Assembly (NCBI GenBank): GCA_019057375.1
Contig: DXJF01000114.1
Span: 23,787 to 47,786 of the forward strand
From: Candidatus Heimdallarchaeota archaeon
GTDB taxonomy: Archaea > Asgardarchaeota > Heimdallarchaeia > Heimdallarchaeales > Heimdallarchaeaceae
Reading direction: 5' to 3'
Length of the DNA: 24,000 nt
Shown here: positions 3,581-19,887 of the stretch, one piece after another
Layout: each line of letters begins with the position of its first letter
Position numbering within the stretch: the stretch's first letter is position 1
Position numbers and translations under genes: made by a program
The notes under the pieces: generated by a model
The model's database searches: none
Told to the model about the DNA's origin: nothing
The model's input: the letters and a program-made list of their open reading frames with translations, nothing else

Positions 3581-5181
3581 AATTCAAACAACCCCTCTTT
3601 AATGAGATAACTTATAGCTCCTCTTTGTGGTTGAGTTAGCTTTCTAAGAAATGTATAATCTATTTTTCTAACTTCAAACCTTTCTTCCTTTTCTTCATCT
3701 AAATCAAACTTGTAAGCATCCTTCCTTTTTGTAACTTGAACAGCTCTTGTAACTACAGGAAGGTTATATGGCGATAAAGATTTGTACTTTGCTTTATGAA
3801 CTGCAAATAAGGTTGCAACATGAATTCCCCCTATTTTCTTGAAAACGATAATATCCGCAAAAGCTGGAAGGATTGTTTTGAAATCGTCTCTATACAAAGC
3901 CATATGATTATGTAAAATGACTAACTGATCAATTCCTACACCGTACTCGTTGGCTTCAAACACATATACCTTCTTATCATCTACTTTTACATATCCTTTT
4001 GAGGAAATTCTAGGATTATCATCAAGTAGTTGCCCAAAGGTGGAATATTTTCTTCTAAACACCTTACTTACGTATTCTTCAATTTGTCTCCACCCATATG
4101 CATAAACAGACCAAATATCAGTCCATCTGCTTCTGGATGAGTGCCAATGTTCAACTACAAACTCAGAGTGAGCGTTTTTGTTAACAGCTTGTAAATCCTT
4201 AATCTCATTCCATGAAAACTCTTCAAGGAATTCTAAATCAGACTTAAATGAGAAAAGCTTCTGAAATACTGTTTCCTCATCACTGTACTTTGCAACTAGT
4301 TTATTCATCGCAGCAAGACTAAATTCACCTATAGGAGGTGCAAGGAAAGCTTTCAATTCTTTAGGATAGATAATTGTTTTATCTTCGTGTCTTTTTGGAA
4401 GCTTATACTCATCTTTCTCTAGTAAATAATTAATTGCTTTTTTCTGAATGTAATGTGCAAAGCCCTCACCTATAAGTTCATGGAGATTCTTTTTTCTTGC
4501 AACCTTAGCCCTTTCATTTATCAGATTAACTGCTTCTATTGAAAAATTATTGAAAAGAGTATATTTCCGAGCATCTTCTGGGGGAGTATAGAAATCTTCT
4601 ACTCCTGCTTCTGTAAATAATCGAATTACACCTATCAAATCTTGGAAGTATTGCCAAGCCCAAACATGTTTATTTTGTGAAGCCTTGTTCAATTGAAATA
4701 CATTGTTTGTCATTAGTTCTTTTAGAACTAAATCTAATTGGTATAATTGTGCTAAAATTCCTGGTGAGTTAGACTCAGTTTTTTCATTCATATAAGCATG
4801 AGCAAATGCATGTATCAACATAACTCTTAGAGTTAATTCTTGTTCTTTAGTAAGTTCTTTTGGAGGAACAGAAAGATAAACAAGAGTTGGTAAAGAGTTA
4901 TAGACAGTTTCCTTTCCAGTTGGAAGGAAATCACTAATCCTAGCTGACCGAAGGTTTGTAATTTGTTCAGAAGTGAGTATAGCTTGTGGAGTTCCTGTTA
5001 CCTCTACAACTCTATTAACAGAAATATGCATCTCAGGATTAATGAAAATTAATATTCTATAATTCTCAGGTGTTGCTCCAATAAGAGTTTTAAAGTCAAC
5101 TCTTGCATTGTTGTAAACTTGGATTACGTCACTAAGTTCTTCTTTAAGCATGAAATATACTCTCCCGTAGTATTTGCTCAC
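3577..5181 (-). CDS. Hypothetical 534-aa protein; possibly a catalytically inactive zincin (peptidase-MA-like) fold
   Basis: Long ORF with a GTG start at 5181; an alternative ATG lies at 5151. HAFAH (nt 4798-4812) plus the downstream EGFAHY (nt 4450-4467) resembles the HExxH ... EGxAxY gluzincin signature with the catalytic Glu replaced by Ala. The N-terminal 25 aa are paralogous to the N-terminus of the upstream VWA protein, which supports the GTG start. Confidence 0.75.
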   Translation of the reverse strand: MSKYYGRVYFMLKEELSDVIQVYNNARVDFKTLIGATPENYRILIFINPEMHISVNRVVEVTGTPQAILTSEQITNLRSARISDFLPTGKETVYNSLPTLVYLSVPPKELTKEQELTLRVMLIHAFAHAYMNEKTESNSPGILAQLYQLDLVLKELMTNNVFQLNKASQNKHVWAWQYFQDLIGVIRLFTEAGVEDFYTPPEDARKYTLFNNFSIEAVNLINERAKVARKKNLHELIGEGFAHYIQKKAINYLLEKDEYKLPKRHEDKTIIYPKELKAFLAPPIGEFSLAAMNKLVAKYSDEETVFQKLFSFKSDLEFLEEFSWNEIKDLQAVNKNAHSEFVVEHWHSSRSRWTDIWSVYAYGWRQIEEYVSKVFRRKYSTFGQLLDDNPRISSKGYVKVDDKKVYVFEANEYGVGIDQLVILHNHMALYRDDFKTILPAFADIIVFKKIGGIHVATLFAVHKAKYKSLSPYNLPVVTRAVQVTKRKDAYKFDLDEEKEERFEVRKIDYTFLRKLTQPQRGAISYLIKEGLFEL

Positions 5182-6566: not shown

Positions 6567-8117
6567 TTAGATATAATCTACTCTGAGTAACAGTTCATAT
6601 GATGGTTTTAGTTTTTCTACGACTTGCTTTCGAATGTTTTCTTTGTATTTGTCTAAACCTTCAAATTTCACTACAAGTTCAGCTAATTCGGCATCGCTTA
6701 ATGCTTTCATTTTAGATATATCTTCGGATATATCTTGAACACTAATTGATACGTCGGATTCTTTGATAGATGTACGTAAAACAATCTTAAGTTGTTGTAG
6801 TGCATCATTAATCATTGAAACTGGAATATCATAAGCATTCATTGTATTTCTTATTCTTTCCAATGTAATGACGTTAATATCAGTTATTTCATCTTCTCTT
6901 GCTTGAAGTAATACTGTTTCCCCAATGATGTTATTCATTGTACGAAGATCAATATGTGGATTTCTTTGAGGGTCATGAATTTCATCTAAACCAGTATAGA
7001 AATCAGTTCTAGCCATTCTACTCTCAGAACGAACACCTTTTGTTTTGAGATTATCAGGTAGTGAATTGTTACCTAAGAAAGCTAGAAAATCAACTGCTAA
7101 TCGACTTACGAAATCAGTTGTTTCTTTTTCTAATTCATGTAGTTGAATAATAGAGGGGTTAGCAGTAATTTTTCTTCGAGAAAGAACAATTTGTTCATCA
7201 AACATATCTTTAATGATTTGTTCTCTGCTTTCCACAGAACGAGCGGGCCAGAGAACTTCAGGAATACGATTAATGATTGGTTGACTTTCTTCTCCAAATA
7301 CTGTTAAAGGAGCATTCGAGGTGAAAAGAACTGCGCCATCAATATAAACTGGCTCGCCTTGAATATTGTATTTGATAACCATTGGCTCCTCAAGAAAACC
7401 CATCAAAGATTCTAGCAGGCTTAATGGAAGCCTTTGTATTTCATTAACTACAATGAAACCATGTGATAATATTCCTACTTTGTGTGAAGTTGCCGCATAT
7501 GTAGTTGAGGTTTCTTTTCCAAACAATTCTTCTAAATTCTCAACACCAGCAAGAAGCATGGATAAGCTTTCAGGATCGGTTCTTGGATCTAGTTGGGATC
7601 TTCTAACTATAGTTTTAGTAGCTCCAAGTTTTCCTAAACGACTAACTACTTCCTTTGGAGGAATGGCTAACATACTATTTGTATTATCTAAATCGACGGT
7701 GTTGTTATCTGTTGAAAGTATGGCTTCAATATTCTTTCTACAATATGGACAGAGAGATTGCATAACACGAATTCCAGCAAAGGGATTTGCTGGGAAATTG
7801 TTCATTACATCCACTATATATCCAGCATCCTCTAAGAATGGACATCCTTCAATATGGTATTTGGAATTATTAATTTCTCTAACAACATGATCTAGCAAAA
7901 TTCTAGCAAACAATGATTTAGCTTCTCCTGTTGGACCAGTAAGTAGAACTTTTCCACCTACAGCTAGTTTATCCATTACCAGATTTTTACCAACATCATT
8001 TCCTCTAACGCTGACGTCTTTTGAAACTCTTTCACGGAATTCAGGATTCATAAGGATTGATCTAACAGAAAATCCATCATAACCATCCTTCATTAATTTC
8101 TGTATTGTGAGTGTCAT
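6567..8117 (-). CDS. MoxR/ChlI-like AAA+ ATPase with a Zn-ribbon insertion
   Basis: Walker A-like LLTGPTGEAKS (nt 7914-7937). Walker B region GFIVVNEIQRLPLSLLESLMGFLEEP is comparable to MoxR hhhhDEINRa...LLeaMeE. Sensor-1 is LFTSNAP. H88/C92/C123/C126 (YHIEGCPF ... SLCPYCRK) are inserted between Walker A and Walker B. Confidence 0.85.
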   Translation of the reverse strand: MTLTIQKLMKDGYDGFSVRSILMNPEFRERVSKDVSVRGNDVGKNLVMDKLAVGGKVLLTGPTGEAKSLFARILLDHVVREINNSKYHIEGCPFLEDAGYIVDVMNNFPANPFAGIRVMQSLCPYCRKNIEAILSTDNNTVDLDNTNSMLAIPPKEVVSRLGKLGATKTIVRRSQLDPRTDPESLSMLLAGVENLEELFGKETSTTYAATSHKVGILSHGFIVVNEIQRLPLSLLESLMGFLEEPMVIKYNIQGEPVYIDGAVLFTSNAPLTVFGEESQPIINRIPEVLWPARSVESREQIIKDMFDEQIVLSRRKITANPSIIQLHELEKETTDFVSRLAVDFLAFLGNNSLPDNLKTKGVRSESRMARTDFYTGLDEIHDPQRNPHIDLRTMNNIIGETVLLQAREDEITDINVITLERIRNTMNAYDIPVSMINDALQQLKIVLRTSIKESDVSISVQDISEDISKMKALSDAELAELVVKFEGLDKYKENIRKQVVEKLKPSYELLLRVDYI

Positions 8118-8134
8118 GAGCTTTACCTTTTTTA

Positions 8135-14915: not shown

Positions 14916-16808
14916 ATGTCTCCCTCGTCAAAGGGAGTGATGAGAAGTTATCAGGTGGTGCTCAAGTGTATAGACCAATCCCAAAGAGAAGAGATTAACC
15001 AGAGAATAAAAACATTAGAAGAACAACAAAATCAGCTACTCACCCCTCAAGTTGTCAAGCAAGCAGTAGAACTCTATAGAACCAATCCCAAAGAAGGATT
15101 TTTCACACGCCAACTCTGCAAAAAAGTAGGGAAAAGTCCAAATATTGCAGAAAGTGCTTTCCACTGGTTATACATAGCTATCAAAGGAAAGATAGATAAG
15201 GAGAAGAAAGTGGAAGGGTTATTGAGCTTTCTTTTGAAAAATCCTCAACAGCTGATAGAATGGCTGATTTTTGGTCGTTCCCCTTATACTGAGCGAAGTT
15301 TAGAAAACTATTGGAGACTAAAAAGAAAATATATCATTAACCTCCTCACCAGTACTAGATCCAAAACTGATTCCTATTGGAGAAAAAAACACAAACACAA
15401 CTATTTTGCTGACTTCCTACAATTCAACGACTCCCTTCCTTTTACGTCACAAACTGATATCCTCCAAGCTCTTGATGATGCGCTGTTTTACTACAATCAT
15501 GAATTTTCTCTCATCCCACAGCTTACCAAAAATCAGAAAGCATTTCTGAAAAAACTCCAACTCTTAAAGAAGGAACAAAAAACTGTAGTACCTTTTCTCA
15601 CTTCATGGATCAAAGGTCCTCAAACTTCTCGATGGAAAAGTCTCAAAACTCTCTCCGAACAACTAGCTTCAATTATAGGCAAACCTTCTCGAAAACTCTT
15701 TTCAGTAGTTAGACTGATAATTGTTTTCACACTCTTTGATCATTACATGCAGAGTGTCCCTCAGTTAGTTAAGGCTCTCCCTATTGCTAATGTTGTTCCC
15801 CTACCATTTAAACGAAAAAAGAAAGGAAGATTACCAATCAAATTGCTAATGAAGAAAAACTATGTTATCACCCGTCAAGGGAATGCTCAAGAATTGACTG
15901 ATCAGGTAAAAAAACAAGGATGGACGGAATTTTGTTTTCCGCAAAAGGGAAAACAGCGACTAACAGCTCAAGTTCACTTTCCTAAAAAAGTAATAGGGTA
16001 TATTGGAAATGGTGCACACTTCAAAGTCTTCCAAGTAAGTAGTGGACAAGCTCCTAGTTTCAAACCTAGGGTGGATGTGGTACTCGAAGGAGCTCATGCT
16101 TGCTTCCATTCATCCAAACTTCTTCACCGTTATCTTGCTAATGTTTCTGCAAAGAAAGCTTCTATTCTTGGAGTAGATATTAACCGCTTAGGACAGTATA
16201 TGGTCGTGTTTAACACCCCTATCCCTCTGCCTCCAGATTTACTAAACTTAGCAGCACACTATAAACATCTCAGCACAAAAGTTCTGGATGAGTTGAACAC
16301 AGGTTTTCTCCGTAAAAGAAAAGAGTATGATTCCCACGGGTGTTGTAAACTTAAAGGTGAACTTGACCGTGTTTATACTCGTCGCAGCCGCATCCTTCGC
16401 GAAATCACTTATCTCCTCCCCCACTTTCTTGCTGCAGTAATGGTGAAAAAGAAGTGTAAAGTGTTAAAGATTGAACGTTTAACTGTTGATCCTACCGGCA
16501 CCAGAGGAGCTTTAGCTAAAGCTATTTACACCATGCCCGATAGTTTGTTCATTTACAAAAAAGCAGTGTGGTTAGCTTCTTTGGAGTTAGGGTATGATGT
16601 GCAGTTAGAAGCAGTTCACCCATATCATACCAGCACCATTCATTACGGATGTGGAGGTCTTCTTACTCGTCAAAAAGGTCAGTATGATGTTGCTCCTTGT
16701 AAAAAGTGTGGTCAAAAGGTCCCTACTCATGCTAATGCTGCCAAAAATATTGCTTCCCTTCAAGGTATCTTTCTTCCTCCCGATTCCTTCCCCTCAACGC
16801 ACGTGTAG
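14916..16808 (+). CDS. tnpB: TnpB/Cas12-like RNA-guided nuclease homolog (RuvC plus Zn finger) with an enlarged N-terminal half
   Basis: RuvC-I ILGVDINRLG (D at nt 16176-16178). RuvC-II KVLKIERLTV (E at 16473-16475). Zn finger HYGCGG...CKKCG. RuvC-III-like THANAAKNIA, where the expected Asp is His (CAT at 16728-16730). The N-terminal MRSYQVVLKC resembles the first TnpB WED strand. The ORF-track start is TTG 14856; ATG 14916 (or 14940) is preferred. Confidence 0.85.
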   Translation: MSPSSKGVMRSYQVVLKCIDQSQREEINQRIKTLEEQQNQLLTPQVVKQAVELYRTNPKEGFFTRQLCKKVGKSPNIAESAFHWLYIAIKGKIDKEKKVEGLLSFLLKNPQQLIEWLIFGRSPYTERSLENYWRLKRKYIINLLTSTRSKTDSYWRKKHKHNYFADFLQFNDSLPFTSQTDILQALDDALFYYNHEFSLIPQLTKNQKAFLKKLQLLKKEQKTVVPFLTSWIKGPQTSRWKSLKTLSEQLASIIGKPSRKLFSVVRLIIVFTLFDHYMQSVPQLVKALPIANVVPLPFKRKKKGRLPIKLLMKKNYVITRQGNAQELTDQVKKQGWTEFCFPQKGKQRLTAQVHFPKKVIGYIGNGAHFKVFQVSSGQAPSFKPRVDVVLEGAHACFHSSKLLHRYLANVSAKKASILGVDINRLGQYMVVFNTPIPLPPDLLNLAAHYKHLSTKVLDELNTGFLRKRKEYDSHGCCKLKGELDRVYTRRSRILREITYLLPHFLAAVMVKKKCKVLKIERLTVDPTGTRGALAKAIYTMPDSLFIYKKAVWLASLELGYDVQLEAVHPYHTSTIHYGCGGLLTRQKGQYDVAPCKKCGQKVPTHANAAKNIASLQGIFLPPDSFPSTHV

Positions 16809-16892
16809 GGGACCCATTCAAACGACGGTTAAATAGCCTCTGCAAGTTTAACCAAGTTTCATAACGTGCGCCGACTTCCTCCACGTCAAGGA
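16798..16892 (+). ncRNA. Candidate omega-RNA (reRNA) 3' scaffold plus guide. Only the 3' part is delimited; the true 5' end probably lies inside the tnpB ORF
   Basis: Nested inverted repeats: cgcacgt 16798-16804 pairs with acgtgcg 16864-16870, enclosing ggttaaa 16827-16833 paired with tttaacc 16847-16853. The structure spans the tnpB stop codon and ends 0-2 nt from the tRNA break. This is the expected location and geometry for a TnpB guide RNA. Confidence 0.35.
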
Positions 16893-16922
16893 GGTATCAT
16901 AGCCAGGCTAGATCACTGCCCC
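16869..16922 (-). pseudogene. 5' portion (nt 1-52) of an intronless tRNA-Val(GAC), truncated in the T stem
   Basis: The reverse complement reads GGGGCAG-TG-ATCTAGCCTGGCTATGATA-CCTCC-TTGACGT-GGAGG-AAGTC-GGCG and then diverges (CACGTTATG...). Over positions 1-48 it differs from the intact copy only by one D-loop base, position 37 and the intron. GGCG is complementary to the CCGCC of the fragment at 12513-12535. Confidence 0.8.
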
Positions 16923-16956
16923 CTTTTATTGATAGGTCTTTCTTCGTTCTCTTCTT

Positions 16957-16984
16957 TCTTGTTTTCTTTAAATATTTTTTGTTA
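16957..16984 (-). promoter_or_regulatory. Putative promoter block of the disrupted tRNA-Val (paralog of 14691-14718)
   Basis: tcttgttttctttaaatattttttgtta lies at the same distance (about 35-62 nt) from the tRNA 5' end as the block upstream of the intact gene. Confidence 0.35.
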
Positions 16985-17271
16985 CAAATCTATGTTTCAC
17001 CAATATTTGATATTTCTCTCTTTTTGGTTCATTAAAATCTTCTTTTTTTTCATTCTAATTATTAATTTGGTTTCTTCTAATTTGCTCGTTTTCTTTAATA
17101 TTTCCCCCTTAAGATACCATTTTGTCAAACTTTCGTTTTTTTCCGACTCAAAATCATATTCCAATCCTTGTTTCTTTTTTCAATATCACTAGGTAACATT
17201 TATAAAAACTTCAGCAGACAATCTATCAAAGGAATAGTGTTAAACTATTCTGTCCACTCGAGTGATTTATT

Positions 17272-19887
17272 ATGGATAAAAGTGTAGCAATGTCTTTAAA
17301 AATCGTTGGTTTTCTCCTTATTCTTACTTCTGCCTGGGTACCTATATATACAATTACATTTGATTCTACAACAACTGAACCTGAACCAATTATTCTTGTT
17401 GGTTCTCAGAGCATTACTGGAGTCCTTCATAATGTATATTACGAAAATAATCTAGCATTTGTAGTAGATTCAGATACAGGGTTAAATATTGTAAATGTAA
17501 CTGATGCAACAACACCTGAGATTATTGGGACATACAATATTGCAAATGGGGCCAATGGTATATTCGTGAAGGATAACTATGCTTACATTGCAGATACGGT
17601 CACAGGATTACAGATTGTTAATATTACTGACCCTACTTCACCAACACAAGTTGGTACATATAGTATTACAGGAGGGGCCACTGATGTATTTGTATCAGGA
17701 AATTATACTTACATTGTAGATTCAACAATAGGGTTTCAAATACTAAATATTAGTGACCCAACAACACCAACACAAGAGGGTGTATTTAGTATTTCAGGGG
17801 AAATAAACAGTTTAATTGTAAAAGATGAATTCGCATATATTGTAGATTCAGTAACTGGTTTACGTATTCTAAATATTACTGACGCAACTTTACCAAGCTT
17901 GGTTGCAACCTTCGATGTAAACGAACCAGTATATGATGTAGCTGTTTTAGGAAGTTATGCTTACATTGTTGGTGAAAATATTGGCATACAAGTAGTAAAT
18001 ATAAGTAATCCTCAATCTCCCGTTCTCACTAGTTCTTATTATATTGAAGGAAATGTCAATGGAATACATATTGAAAATGAACATGCATATATTGTTGATT
18101 CGACTGTTGGAATACAAATTGTTTCAATTATAAATCCAGAAGAATTAACTATTGTAGGCTCACAGGAAATTACAGGAGAGATATATGGAATATTCGTAAA
18201 AGATGGATATGCATATGTTGTAGGATCAGATCTAGAAATCTTTATAGTAAGACCCAGATCTGAGTATGATTCATCAGGTACACTAGTACGAATCTTCGGT
18301 TTCAAAATCGATTATAAAATGTTAACTTACAGTAGTGCAAACAACCTCGCTCAAGAACGATTCTTGGAAGCAGAAACACCCAGTAGTGTTGTTATTCTTG
18401 CTGCAGCTTTGTGGTTTATACTAATCTTTGCTACAGCTGCTGTTGTTTTGGGTCAGGTTTTTCAAAGTGGTGGTTTCAAATCGAGGGGCACTATTGCAGA
18501 TATTGCTGCAGGAATTCTTTTACTTTTGGCTCTGGTAGTTGCTATTTTATCAATGAGCAGATCAATGATTATAGCAGCAGAAAGATACCAAGCTTTAGTA
18601 ACGGGACAAACTGCAGCCTCAACGGTGCCTCTTACGTTTAACCCGAATGATTCTACACCAGCTTACTTTGACATTGGTTTAACAGGTTCAGTTGGACCAG
18701 GATTCTACATATTCACCATTGGAATATTAATGATGGTAACTGGTATCTTTCTACCAGTCAATTGGCAACAACCAACCAGCTCCAAAATGTCAAGAAGAAT
18801 TGGTGATACTGGTGTTCTTAGATGGGTTAAAAACATAGCATCATTAAGATTAACTACTTATGTTACTAGAAGATTATTAACACTTATTCCTCTCTTCATT
18901 GCAATATGTGTGATGACATTTGTAATGGTAAACGGAATGGGTGACCCAGTTGCATTATTGCTACTTGGAAAACAAAGAGTAACGGAACAAGATAGGATAA
19001 ATCTTACTAAAAAACTTGGTCTAGATCAGCCCATTTATATTCAATTCGTTACTTGGTTCTATAACCTTATACGAGGGGACATGGGTATAAGTTTCCAATC
19101 AGGTCAATCAATTAATAATATGATTGGTGGATTAATTTGGGAAACTTTAAAGCTTCAGTTAGCATCATTTGTGCTAGCTTTGCTTATTTCGATACCTTTG
19201 GGTGTTTTAGCAGCAAAGAATCAAAATACTTGGATTGACTCAGCTGCAAGTTCTTTCGCACTCTTAGGTCTCTCAATGCCAATTTTTGTGTTTGGTTTAT
19301 TAATGATTTATATATTCAGCGGATATGGTTTAGGATGGTTCCCAGCTGCAAAAGCTCACCGAATACCAGCGCCCACGCCTGTGTTTAGTCAGACGAACTG
19401 GCAATTATTCTGGTCAGGGCAGTGGGGAGGTGTTGGTGGATTTTGGAATAATGTAGGTGTAAGATTAGGGGATTCACTCCTTCATATGGCTTTACCAACT
19501 ATAACTTTGACATTTGCTTTCTTAGCCCTATATACTAGGTTAGTTAGGGCAACAATGCTTGAAGTTCTTAGACAAGATTATGTCTTATCTGCAAGAGCAA
19601 ATGGAATATCTGAAAGAACCATTACATGGAGACATGCATTCAGAAATGTTTTGATCCCTGTAGTAACCTATGTTGGGTTGTTTATGGCTACAGCTTTAGC
19701 TGGAGCTCCAATTACTGAAACACTCTTCACATGGCCGGGTTTAGGATTCAAATATGTAGGTGCGGTGCTTCTTTTGGACTTCCCGATGGTCTTAGGTACG
19801 ACGGCGATTCTGACTTTACTTATCTTACTAGGTAACTTGATAACAGATATTGCTTATGTTGCGGTAGATCCGCGTATAGAACTATGA
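17272..19887 (+). CDS. oppB: Fusion protein: signal/TM, 7x LVIVD-repeat beta-propeller, 3 TM helices, then an Opp/Dpp-type ABC permease (OppB/DppB family)
   Basis: Uninterrupted 871-aa ORF. Residues ~43-326 hold seven ~42-aa repeats (YAYIxDsxxGLqIvNItDPtxP). Residues ~520-871 match DppB/OppB (YVTRRLLTLIPLFIAICVMTFVMVNGMGDP, EAA-loop region LRQDYVLSARANGISERTI, C-terminal ITDIAYVAVDPRIE). Confidence 0.9.
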   Translation: MDKSVAMSLKIVGFLLILTSAWVPIYTITFDSTTTEPEPIILVGSQSITGVLHNVYYENNLAFVVDSDTGLNIVNVTDATTPEIIGTYNIANGANGIFVKDNYAYIADTVTGLQIVNITDPTSPTQVGTYSITGGATDVFVSGNYTYIVDSTIGFQILNISDPTTPTQEGVFSISGEINSLIVKDEFAYIVDSVTGLRILNITDATLPSLVATFDVNEPVYDVAVLGSYAYIVGENIGIQVVNISNPQSPVLTSSYYIEGNVNGIHIENEHAYIVDSTVGIQIVSIINPEELTIVGSQEITGEIYGIFVKDGYAYVVGSDLEIFIVRPRSEYDSSGTLVRIFGFKIDYKMLTYSSANNLAQERFLEAETPSSVVILAAALWFILIFATAAVVLGQVFQSGGFKSRGTIADIAAGILLLLALVVAILSMSRSMIIAAERYQALVTGQTAASTVPLTFNPNDSTPAYFDIGLTGSVGPGFYIFTIGILMMVTGIFLPVNWQQPTSSKMSRRIGDTGVLRWVKNIASLRLTTYVTRRLLTLIPLFIAICVMTFVMVNGMGDPVALLLLGKQRVTEQDRINLTKKLGLDQPIYIQFVTWFYNLIRGDMGISFQSGQSINNMIGGLIWETLKLQLASFVLALLISIPLGVLAAKNQNTWIDSAASSFALLGLSMPIFVFGLLMIYIFSGYGLGWFPAAKAHRIPAPTPVFSQTNWQLFWSGQWGGVGGFWNNVGVRLGDSLLHMALPTITLTFAFLALYTRLVRATMLEVLRQDYVLSARANGISERTITWRHAFRNVLIPVVTYVGLFMATALAGAPITETLFTWPGLGFKYVGAVLLLDFPMVLGTTAILTLLILLGNLITDIAYVAVDPRIEL
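17398..18249 (+). repeat. Seven tandem LVIVD-type coding repeats (~126 bp period) inside the permease fusion gene
   Basis: The repeated peptide blocks are AFVVDSDTGLNIVNVTD, AYIADTVTGLQIVNITD, TYIVDSTIGFQILNISD, AYIVDSVTGLRILNITD, AYIVGENIGIQVVNISN, AYIVDSTVGIQIVSIIN and AYVVGSDLEIFIV. Confidence 0.75.

Follow-up and report, generated by a model that had tools for sequence, protein, structure and literature searches.

The 24,000-nucleotide stretch analyzed here (the window; Candidatus Heimdallarchaeota archaeon, contig DXJF01000114.1, positions 23,787 to 47,786) carries a tnpB-like gene whose 3' end abuts a broken-off tRNA-Val gene. Complementary segments lie across the stop codon of the first and end at the break in the second. 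Do these segments form the scaffold of an omega RNA, and would the guide of that RNA be tRNA sequence? The original prediction, made from the sequence alone, had proposed a nested, omega-RNA-like stem structure of an IS200/IS605 system with a guide derived from the tRNA. Here, we consider it likely that 16790-16870 encodes the 3' guide-RNA scaffold of a TnpB element of the IS607 type, common in Heimdallarchaeota, that this element was inserted in tRNA-Val with tRNA sequence as its guide, and that the copy was later truncated. The mechanism is already known; the locus is an IS607-type TnpB/omega-RNA element in an instructive setting. The parts of the predicted RNA are as follows.

16790-16811, plus strand: hairpin P1, CCCCTC (16790-16795) with GAGGGG (16805 and 16807-16811), T16806 bulged; pairing invariant in 54 loci.
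16798-16804, plus strand: pseudoknot 5' arm, cgcacgt, which pairs with 16864-16870; covariation.
16827-16853, plus strand: hairpin P3, ggttaaa/tttaacc, with a small apical GC/GC extension; covariation.
16854-16863, plus strand: linker AAGTTTCATA between P3 and the pseudoknot 3' arm; near-invariant columns in the family alignment.
16864-16870, plus strand: pseudoknot 3' arm, acgtgcg, the last 7 nucleotides (nt) of the scaffold, which also form the right end, placed at the limit of conservation in about 55 loci.
16871-16890, plus strand: predicted guide, CCGACTTCCTCCACGTCAAG, an antisense copy of the native intron-less tRNA-Val(GAC) from position 31 to position 50, across the anticodon.

Both stems can be read directly from the sequence, as had been predicted. 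The segment 16798-16804 (cgcacgt) is complementary to 16864-16870 (acgtgcg), which gives the outer stem, and 16827-16833 (ggttaaa) is complementary to 16847-16853 (tttaacc), which gives the inner stem with 13 nt between its arms. The stop codon of tnpB (TAG, 16806-16808) lies between arms of the two stems and inside hairpin P1, and the structure does span the stop codon, as claimed. When 16786-16871 was folded with RNAfold, both stems were recovered at -20.6 kcal/mol (z = -1.34), and 22 of 200 shuffled sequences folded equally well. The opposite strand gave a z score of -0.01.

The stems were then examined in relatives. Seventy-eight loci encoding relatives of tnpB were fetched, and their DNA was lined up from codon ~612 onward. 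Pairs were counted for the two stems and the third hairpin, P1, in an alignment of 54 distinct homologous scaffolds from Heimdallarchaeota (A2). Standard pairs made up 98.0% of the cells, compared with 23-48% in slid controls, in which the 3' partner was shifted by 1-3 columns. Compensatory double changes were found in 7 pairs against 1.9 expected, and in 0 of 500 shuffles was any of the measures reached. The covarying pairs were divided between the outer stem (4 of 7 pairs, with 97.4% of cells paired) and the inner stem (3 of 7 pairs, with 97.3% of cells paired). For example, the outer stem reads CGCTCGT/ATCGAGCG in L014 and ACACACGT/ACGTGTGT in L051, and the inner stem reads GGTTAGG/CCTAACC in L010. 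The check on conserved, covarying stems that had been suggested with the prediction came out in its favor. A G-U pair at A2 columns 48-65, in the inner stem, was present in 28 sequences. Because G-U cells across the stems exceeded A-C cells (50 versus 14), the structure reads as that of an RNA made from the tnpB strand.

P1 (CCCCTC at 16790-16795 with GAGGGG at 16805-16811) is nearly invariant and was also recovered by RNAalifold. Its pairing holds in distant clades (38-48% protein identity), with C-G replaced by U-A in 5 of 15 sequences and with U-G variants. The layout recurs in these clades with other sequences, such as CTCCTC/GAGGAG and CGCATAC/GTATGCG. Since the 5' arm of the outer stem lies inside the loop of P1, the arrangement is an H-type pseudoknot and not a simple nesting. 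Thus, the pairing in the proposed nested structure holds in the 54 loci, but the nesting does not. In the linker, no variation was seen at A2 columns 71-77 and 79 (G-TTTCAT, A-A), and conservation at columns 70, 78, and 80 was 90% or higher. RNAalifold found no further supported helices in the coding region within 260 nt upstream of the right end.

In the copy studied here, all 20 scaffold pairs form except C16795-T16806, and no disruptive changes are present. The closing pair of P1 has moved to C16795-G16805 with T16806 bulged, and this bulge is common among relatives. T16806 (A2 column 21, GTG-T-AGGGG) is carried by 23 of the 54 copies, and this bulged base creates the TAG stop; in family copies without a T at this column, the reading frame runs 3-12 codons further (..HVRG..).

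The boundary of the element was located from the same comparison. In about 55 loci, similarity continues through ...GGTTAnA...TTTAACCAAGTTTCATAACGTGCG and then ceases at the position matching 16870. On this comparison, 16870 is therefore the right end of the mobile element, and it is also the predicted boundary between scaffold and guide. Conservation is 77-98% over the final eight positions; a T follows at +1 in 52 of 56 loci, and background composition is reached from +2. By eye, the right-end flanks are unrelated between loci and differ in every one of them. An omega-RNA-like scaffold, which covaries, lies on the plus strand, overlaps the 3' end of tnpB, and stops at the right end, is what the prediction had called for.

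The type of element, in contrast, had to be revised. No Y1 transposase was found in any of the 78 loci. In many of them, the gene just upstream of tnpB encodes a partner of 196 amino acids (aa) with a MerR helix-turn-helix and a resolvase catalytic domain; for the TnpA of L020 (2326-2913), PF00376 (MerR) was matched at an E value of 2e-13 and PF00239 (Resolvase) at 1e-21. Since this serine-recombinase TnpA is encoded upstream of tnpB, the architecture is that of IS607 and not that of IS200/IS605. The elements measure ~2.1 kb (tnpB only) or ~2.7 kb (tnpA and tnpB), and several copies occur per metagenome-assembled genome (MAG).

The ends are also of the IS607 type, as terminal inverted repeats are absent and no duplication of the flanks was seen. 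The left-end motif among relatives is [..A]C[C/T]GT..ACTGAAGAG..AAACTTACCCAATCTTACC, and the final base of the left flank, before C[C/T]GT, is A in 31 of 35 cases. When the left end, C[CG]T, is set against the right end, G[CG]T, the bracketed dinucleotide agrees in 19 of 23 complete elements, 13 of them with CG/CG and 6 with TG/TG. A crossover dinucleotide TA or GT was also considered; both misfit the flank statistics and the junction in the window, which CG fits. The CG at 16869-16870 is at once the last scaffold pair and the core dinucleotide shared with the target. Experiments on IS607 elements have shown that the transposon-adjacent motif (TAM) includes the core dinucleotide and that the scaffold ends with the same two bases (PMC10690162). 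By analogy, the TAM of the Heimdallarchaeota element would be about ACCG, containing the core CG.

The right end carries the motif AAGTTT twice, in the linker and in CAAGTTTAACC, at a spacing of 10-11 nt, and the motif is inverted in the left ends (which read GGTAAGATTGGGTAAGTTTT in reverse complement). Judging from their sequence and placement, these repeats are probably TnpA binding sites, with some bases serving both DNA and RNA roles. Could the stems, then, be right-end sites for TnpA binding or synapsis at the DNA level and not RNA structure at all? The invariance and spacing of the repeats and their inversion in the left ends would suit such a function, and so would the high conservation of the nominally single-stranded linker, the most conserved stretch. 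In addition, IS607 ends have been reported to bind several TnpA dimers (PMC6188088). However, protein sites need no compensatory changes between arms 13-60 nt apart, and seven pairs covary. The G-U excess makes sense only for an RNA from one strand, and P1 and the pseudoknot lie outside the repeats. We therefore regard a purely DNA-level role as quite improbable. DNA and RNA functions can coexist in the same right-end bases.

The protein that would use this RNA is encoded directly upstream.

14916-16808, plus strand: TnpB-like gene, 630 aa from the ATG (the open reading frame [ORF] opens at 14856); Pfam, PDB profile, and AlphaFold2/Foldseek.

Its match to PF07282 (Cas12f1-like TNB domain) had an E value of 1e-4, which is under the Pfam cut-off. 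More than 120 homologues were found at 41-85% identity, all in Heimdallarchaeota and often several per MAG. A profile of the family matched CnCas12f1 in the PDB (E 2e-7), plus TnpB chains. The AlphaFold2 model of the 630-aa protein had a mean confidence (pLDDT) of 86, and the 34 Foldseek matches in the PDB at an E value of 1e-3 or lower were all Cas12f, TnpB, Fanzor2, Cas12-type, or type V-K CRISPR-associated transposon (Cas12k) structures, the best of which extended over about 460-530 columns. As modeled, the protein has a TnpB/Cas12f fold. The RuvC residues D421, E520, and H605 are invariant in all 38 aligned homologues. The canonical D-E-D triad is not present, as H605 aligns to the catalytic Asp (THxNAAxNI versus NADxNAA); the RuvC-III motif THANAAKNI (residues ~600-612) is encoded at 16715-16735. 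The zinc-finger region is of the HCCC type, with H576, C579, C595, and C598 as likely ligands.

What lies beyond the right end is best seen from the tRNA genes and gene remnants of the locus.

16869-16926, minus strand: pseudo-tRNA that retains positions 1-52, on the 5' side, of the native tRNA-Val(GAC); 95% identical to L079 from 5599 onward; repeats D1, D2, and D9.
14549-14657, minus strand: complete, presumably functional tRNA-Val(GAC); Rfam tRNA at 49.3 bits and ARAGORN with the intron option.
12513-12535, minus strand: 3' piece of the native tRNA-Val, now displaced, with CCA, the 3' strands of acceptor and T-stem, and the T-loop; its junction, ggattcgaa/tagactcc, is identical in L084.
14733-14826, plus strand: 3' remnant of tnpA (serine recombinase), ...QVDKFAENMDKLAISFARSINRQQRGKTHHN; tblastn with the TnpA of L020.

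Three informative loci or groups (L079, L084, and L080 with L086) were reached via homologues of neighboring genes. L079, whose DNA is 94-95% identical, represents the empty site: the element is absent, and tRNA-Val(GAC) is intact and intron-less (...ggcggattcgaaccgccgacttcc...; the tRNA reads ...ggcgg attcgaa ccgcc gacttcctccacgtcaagg...). Positions 1-5597 of L079 correspond to 6938-12535 of the window, and L079 from 5599 onward corresponds to the window from 16869 onward. The homology at 16869 overlaps the last two stem bases (CG), and both the closing of the outer stem at the tRNA break and the identity of the flank as a tRNA-Val fragment, as originally described, are borne out by this intact gene at the same spot. 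The insertion point is AAC[CG]CC in the T-stem of the intron-less tRNA-Val(GAC), at tRNA positions 51-52, and a CG core accounts exactly for the right junction, GTG-CG-CCGACTT.

The empty site also bears on whether the stems belong to the tRNA itself, for example by being left over from a split or permuted tRNA or by forming an odd T-arm intron. It is true that the outer stem abuts the T-stem and that relatives have odd introns, such as that in the T-loop of L080. However, the stems are present in 54 loci with unrelated, non-tRNA flanks, the intact gene of L079 contains none of the stem sequence, and the 3' part that the tRNA fragment lacks is found at 12513-12535, at a distance of 4.3 kb. Because of the empty site and the family alignment, a tRNA origin of the stems is refuted, and we give it practically no chance. 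The L080 gene (5560-5650; a lineage of 69% identity) is a tRNA-Val at the corresponding locus with a T-loop insert of ~30 nt (plus strand: ggcgg-actttcagttgtttactcgcaagtaaacaaaatttgaa-ccgcc). Such a site is not canonical for an intron, and the gene was missed by ARAGORN.

With the stems assigned to the element, the guide can be specified. As the CG at 16869-16870 serves as core dinucleotide and closes the scaffold as its last pair, 16871 rather than 16869 is the most probable first position of the guide (CCGACTTCC...). Since the insertion is at this CG in the T-stem, the predicted guide at 16871-16890 is antisense to tRNA positions 31-50, numbered from the L079 tRNA sequence. The earlier estimate of positions ~52-33 was right about the antisense tRNA-Val sequence but not about the start. 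The 20-mer is found exactly in the intact tRNA-Val genes of L079, L080-83, and L086 (6 loci; that of L086 is again intron-less), and in none of the L084-type loci. In L079, the match is preceded by AACCG. The guide thus matches the uninterrupted allele, as the homing model predicts. Within the window, the guide sequence occurs only at the junction. The suggestion that such an RNA could pair with the tRNA gene is therefore compatible with the sequences of related loci but not with the window, where no intact gene matches.

The intact gene that does reside in the window is of another kind. This tRNA-Val(GAC) has a 31-nt intron at 37/38, a GCAAG/CTTGC T-stem, and an encoded CCA, and its promoter region is at 14658-14718. 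It reads AACTT-GCGACTTCCTCCAC-TTTTTG; ACCG and the core are lost, and position 1 of the match is different. In addition, the intron interrupts the guide match after 13 nt. To the spliced tRNA, the guide is complementary at 18 of 20 positions, and pairing with the tRNA transcript is possible on paper only. Neither ARAGORN at default settings nor Rfam at gathering thresholds found any tRNA in the window; the resident gene was seen only with permissive Rfam filters (49 bits, cut-off 29) and the ARAGORN intron option. Archaeal tRNAs with introns can escape default tools, as this one did.

Taken together, a course of events can be proposed for the locus. Read on the tnpB strand, the scaffold would extend to the right end and comprise P1, P3, and a pseudoknot in which the P1 loop pairs with the final 7 nt. 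The RNA would continue into the flank, as in characterized IS605 and IS607 systems, and ~16-20 nt of the flank would serve as the guide. The serine recombinase would have inserted the element at the core CG of AAC[CG]CC in the T-stem of the intron-less tRNA-Val(GAC). The natural target would be the uninterrupted tRNA-Val allele, with a motif of about ACCG before the match. TnpB would cut the empty allele, and repair would copy the element back (homing). In a later recombination, L084-type DNA from a sister lineage may have replaced the left end and nearly all of tnpA, by a homologous exchange on one side and an illegitimate one within tnpA on the other. The same recombination may have brought in a beta-helix gene and the working tRNA-Val allele. 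In this incoming allele, the GCAAG/CTTGC T-stem would destroy ACCG, and the 31-nt intron would interrupt the target after 13 nt.

This proposal draws on the composition of the locus. L084, which is 94.7% identical over 6597-14718 of the window, has no insertion sequence (IS) and carries the intron-bearing tRNA-Val with the GCAAG/CTTGC T-stem, followed directly by the native upstream DNA. It also shares the tRNA 3' remnant (window 12513-12535) and the beta-helix gene. The window resembles L084 up to 14718 and L079 from 16869 onward, and the junction of the tRNA upstream DNA with the tnpA remnant falls inside 14719-14732 (~14 nt). When searched by tblastn with the TnpA of L020, the remnant matched residues 123-196 (E 2.5e-5), convincingly over roughly residues 165-196. 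Only the last ~30 codons of tnpA are left, and the rest is missing together with the left end, whose motif is absent anywhere in the window. On the other side, a promoter-like region (16927-16984) adjoins the pseudo-tRNA and resembles the region beside the complete tRNA-Val. On the minus strand, this region is 95% identical to that of the intact L079 gene. From its sequence, it could drive an antisense transcript that runs across guide and scaffold into the 3' end of tnpB.

Such a mosaic might also arise in assembly, with the complete tRNA, the truncated IS, and the tRNA fragment joined from two co-occurring strains. The L084-like left part and L079-like right part would be expected of a chimera, and the arrangement rests on one contig at 10x coverage. 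However, the sequences that meet at 14718/14733 (tRNA upstream DNA and the interior of tnpA) share no repeat that could have misled the assembler, and the duplicated 100 bp are only 85% identical. The junction of right end and tRNA fits a clean CG-core insertion into an L079-type gene, independently of the left junction. An assembly chimera is thus very improbable.

Other ways of delimiting the element were rejected. A single IS607-derived unit of 4.3 kb (12536-16868) starting at TAGAC was discarded, as its likeness to a left end was at shuffle level: Smith-Waterman comparison of 12536-12580 with 29 genuine left ends gave a score of 20, the shuffle mean was 20.0, and 158 of 300 shuffles scored as high. 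An element spanning 14576-16871 with its own tRNA 5' half was ruled out by the comparisons with L079 and L084. A simple tandem duplication of the locus was dropped once the complete intron-bearing tRNA-Val was found.

Several points weigh against reading the scaffold as part of a working guide RNA. The fold of the single sequence is within chance and not significant, and the detected scaffold is short, at about 82 nt. The check with RNA covariance models gave no support: Rfam at gathering thresholds yielded no match to the scaffold in the window, and no RNA family besides tRNA was found in 14300-17300 at an E value of 10 or lower. The base after the right end is C here and T in 52 of 56 loci. 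Part of the conservation, that of the AAGTTT repeats, may reflect TnpA-DNA binding rather than RNA. The whole family has His in place of the RuvC-III Asp, and its nuclease activity is putative; TnpB branches with such RuvC-III changes (Asp to His) are considered probably active (PMC10691335). The arrangement was found on one contig only, at 10x coverage, and a search for independent contigs with the same junctions returned the source contig only. Finally, the window holds no left end, no tnpA, and no matching target, and the copy may be an inert relic.

In the last case, the scaffold would be genuine for the family, but this copy would be immobile, and its RNA, if made, would have no target or role. 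The loss of the left-end motif and of all but about 100 nt of tnpA agrees with this, as does the lack of another guide match in the window, where the resident tRNA-Val offers 13 contiguous nt only and no ACCG. The pseudo-tRNA promoter, if active, could moreover drive antisense transcription over the scaffold. However, the tnpB ORF is intact with all family-invariant residues kept, the conserved TATA-like box upstream of tnpB (gagtttaaaaacc, about 14841-14853) is retained, and the scaffold is free of disruptive changes. The search for guide targets covered the window, and the rest of the genome may hold one. A dead relic is a possibility to be kept in mind, but a somewhat unlikely one.

As reported previously, an IS607 TnpB-omega RNA has been characterized in the Clostridium botulinum IStron (CboTnpB/TnpAS; Zedaveinyte et al., PMC10690162), and the Heimdallarchaeota element resembles it in many respects. 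In both, a MerR-resolvase TnpA is encoded upstream of tnpB, terminal inverted repeats are lacking, and the core dinucleotides of the left and right ends match. In each, the scaffold shares sequence with the 3' end of tnpB and runs out to the right end, the flank is the guide (a predicted one in the Heimdallarchaeota element), and the last two bases of the scaffold are the last two of the target motif or TAM. In contrast, the core is CG (or TG) and the predicted motif ACCG, compared with GG and TGGG in the IStron. Unlike CboTnpB, the protein has 630-650 aa, a helical N-terminal region of ~300 aa, and the RuvC-III His; the host is an archaeon, and no group I intron is present.

The TnpB-omega RNA of ISDra2 (IS200/IS605; PDB 8H1J) is like the proposed Heimdallarchaeota system in its RNA-guided TnpB fold (Foldseek E 5e-6), in a guide taken from the flank 3' of the scaffold, and in the homing logic by which the empty site is cut. 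It differs in its Y1 transposase, single-stranded DNA transposition, D-E-D triad, and ~400-aa protein, and the Heimdallarchaeota scaffold has no sequence similarity to the ISDra2 RNA. The ISDra2 omega RNA scaffold likewise contains a pseudoknot. TnpB branches with a rearranged RuvC-III (RIIIr and Ser-6) were cataloged by Altae-Tran et al. in 2023 in a survey that aligned downstream regions to locate scaffold/guide boundaries (PMC10691335). These branches share the branch-conserved Asp-to-His change in RuvC-III, and some of them are archaeal and linked to serine recombinases. The zinc finger kept by the Heimdallarchaeota family is missing from RIIIr-4.

A tRNA gene disrupted by a mobile element was described in Caldiarchaeum subterraneum (Sugahara et al. 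2012, PMC3293823). That locus likewise has a tRNA 5' fragment, a multicopy insertion sequence of ~1.9 kb, an adjacent complete tRNA of the same identity with intron(s), and population heterogeneity. The Caldiarchaeum element encodes a 270-aa putative recombinase, with no RNA-guided nuclease or guide recognized, whereas in the window the fragment is the would-be TnpB guide.

Other copies of the family also abut tRNA genes. In L035, a close-clade copy, the right end GTG[CG] is followed by TGCCCCACCA (flank 4943-4960), the acceptor/CCA 3' terminus of a gene resembling tRNA-Met(CAT); the locus also holds a complete tRNA-Met copy with two introns (2576-2709) and a 5' fragment (2058-~2092). In L061, L064, L065, and L069, a decayed tRNA-Asn 3' half abuts the right end, and the copies start ~80 nt after a complete tRNA-Asn(GTT) (~2840-2920). 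In six orthologous loci of a distant clade (L063, L070-73, and L078; six MAGs), the right-end flank, ACGCATAGCCGCTTTG..., is antisense to the D-arm of tRNA-Cys, and 55-65 nt separate the right end from the complete gene. Two types of tRNA-Cys D-arm are swapped between fragment and gene in L070 and L073. In L057, a complete intron-bearing tRNA-Leu(TAA) lies ~40 nt beyond the right end, and in L057 and L058 a tRNA-Leu 3' fragment can be read on the left-end side. In the Met, Asn, and Cys groups, comparison by eye, without a count, showed several positions at which fragment and resident tRNA disagree. As a small sample in which several loci are orthologous, these copies hint at a wider conflict between guides and tRNAs.

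The window itself provides a candidate escape allele, with an altered TAM/core and a 31-nt intron inside the target, adjoining the nuclease gene. One might speculate that the TnpB family repeatedly homes to tRNA genes, that tRNA-derived guides select for escape alleles (introns and changed T- or D-arms), and that this is one driver of the disrupted, intron-rich tRNA genes of archaea; we hold this extension to be rather doubtful. The three-state series of an empty tRNA-Val (L079), a candidate escape allele (L084), and an element in the old allele beside that escape allele (the window) makes testable the old idea that interruptions protect tRNA genes against mobile elements. In addition, a concrete scaffold, a boundary, and a predicted TAM/core (ACCG/CG) are now available for an uncharacterized, Asgard-restricted TnpB clade, and this clade, with its long N-terminal region and RuvC-III His, can be synthesized and tested directly.

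Two minor features of the neighborhood were noted. The segment 12536-14548 splits the same tRNA-Val at 1-4 nt from the IS site; the tRNA 3' remnant is followed by TAGACTCC... and a gene for a 655-aa parallel beta-helix (NosD-like) protein. This segment is absent from L079, has no integrase, and has a left end unrelated to that of the IS, and its ORF has no homologue among the two extra ORFs of L080. From its distribution, it would be an older, separate insertion common to the window and L084. Downstream of the element, at 17368-18277, an LVIVD-repeat domain is fused to the N terminus of an ABC permease (871 aa) in the window and in L079. The permeases of L084 and L086 (587-592 aa) lack this domain, which amounts to a presence/absence polymorphism near the tRNA hot spot.

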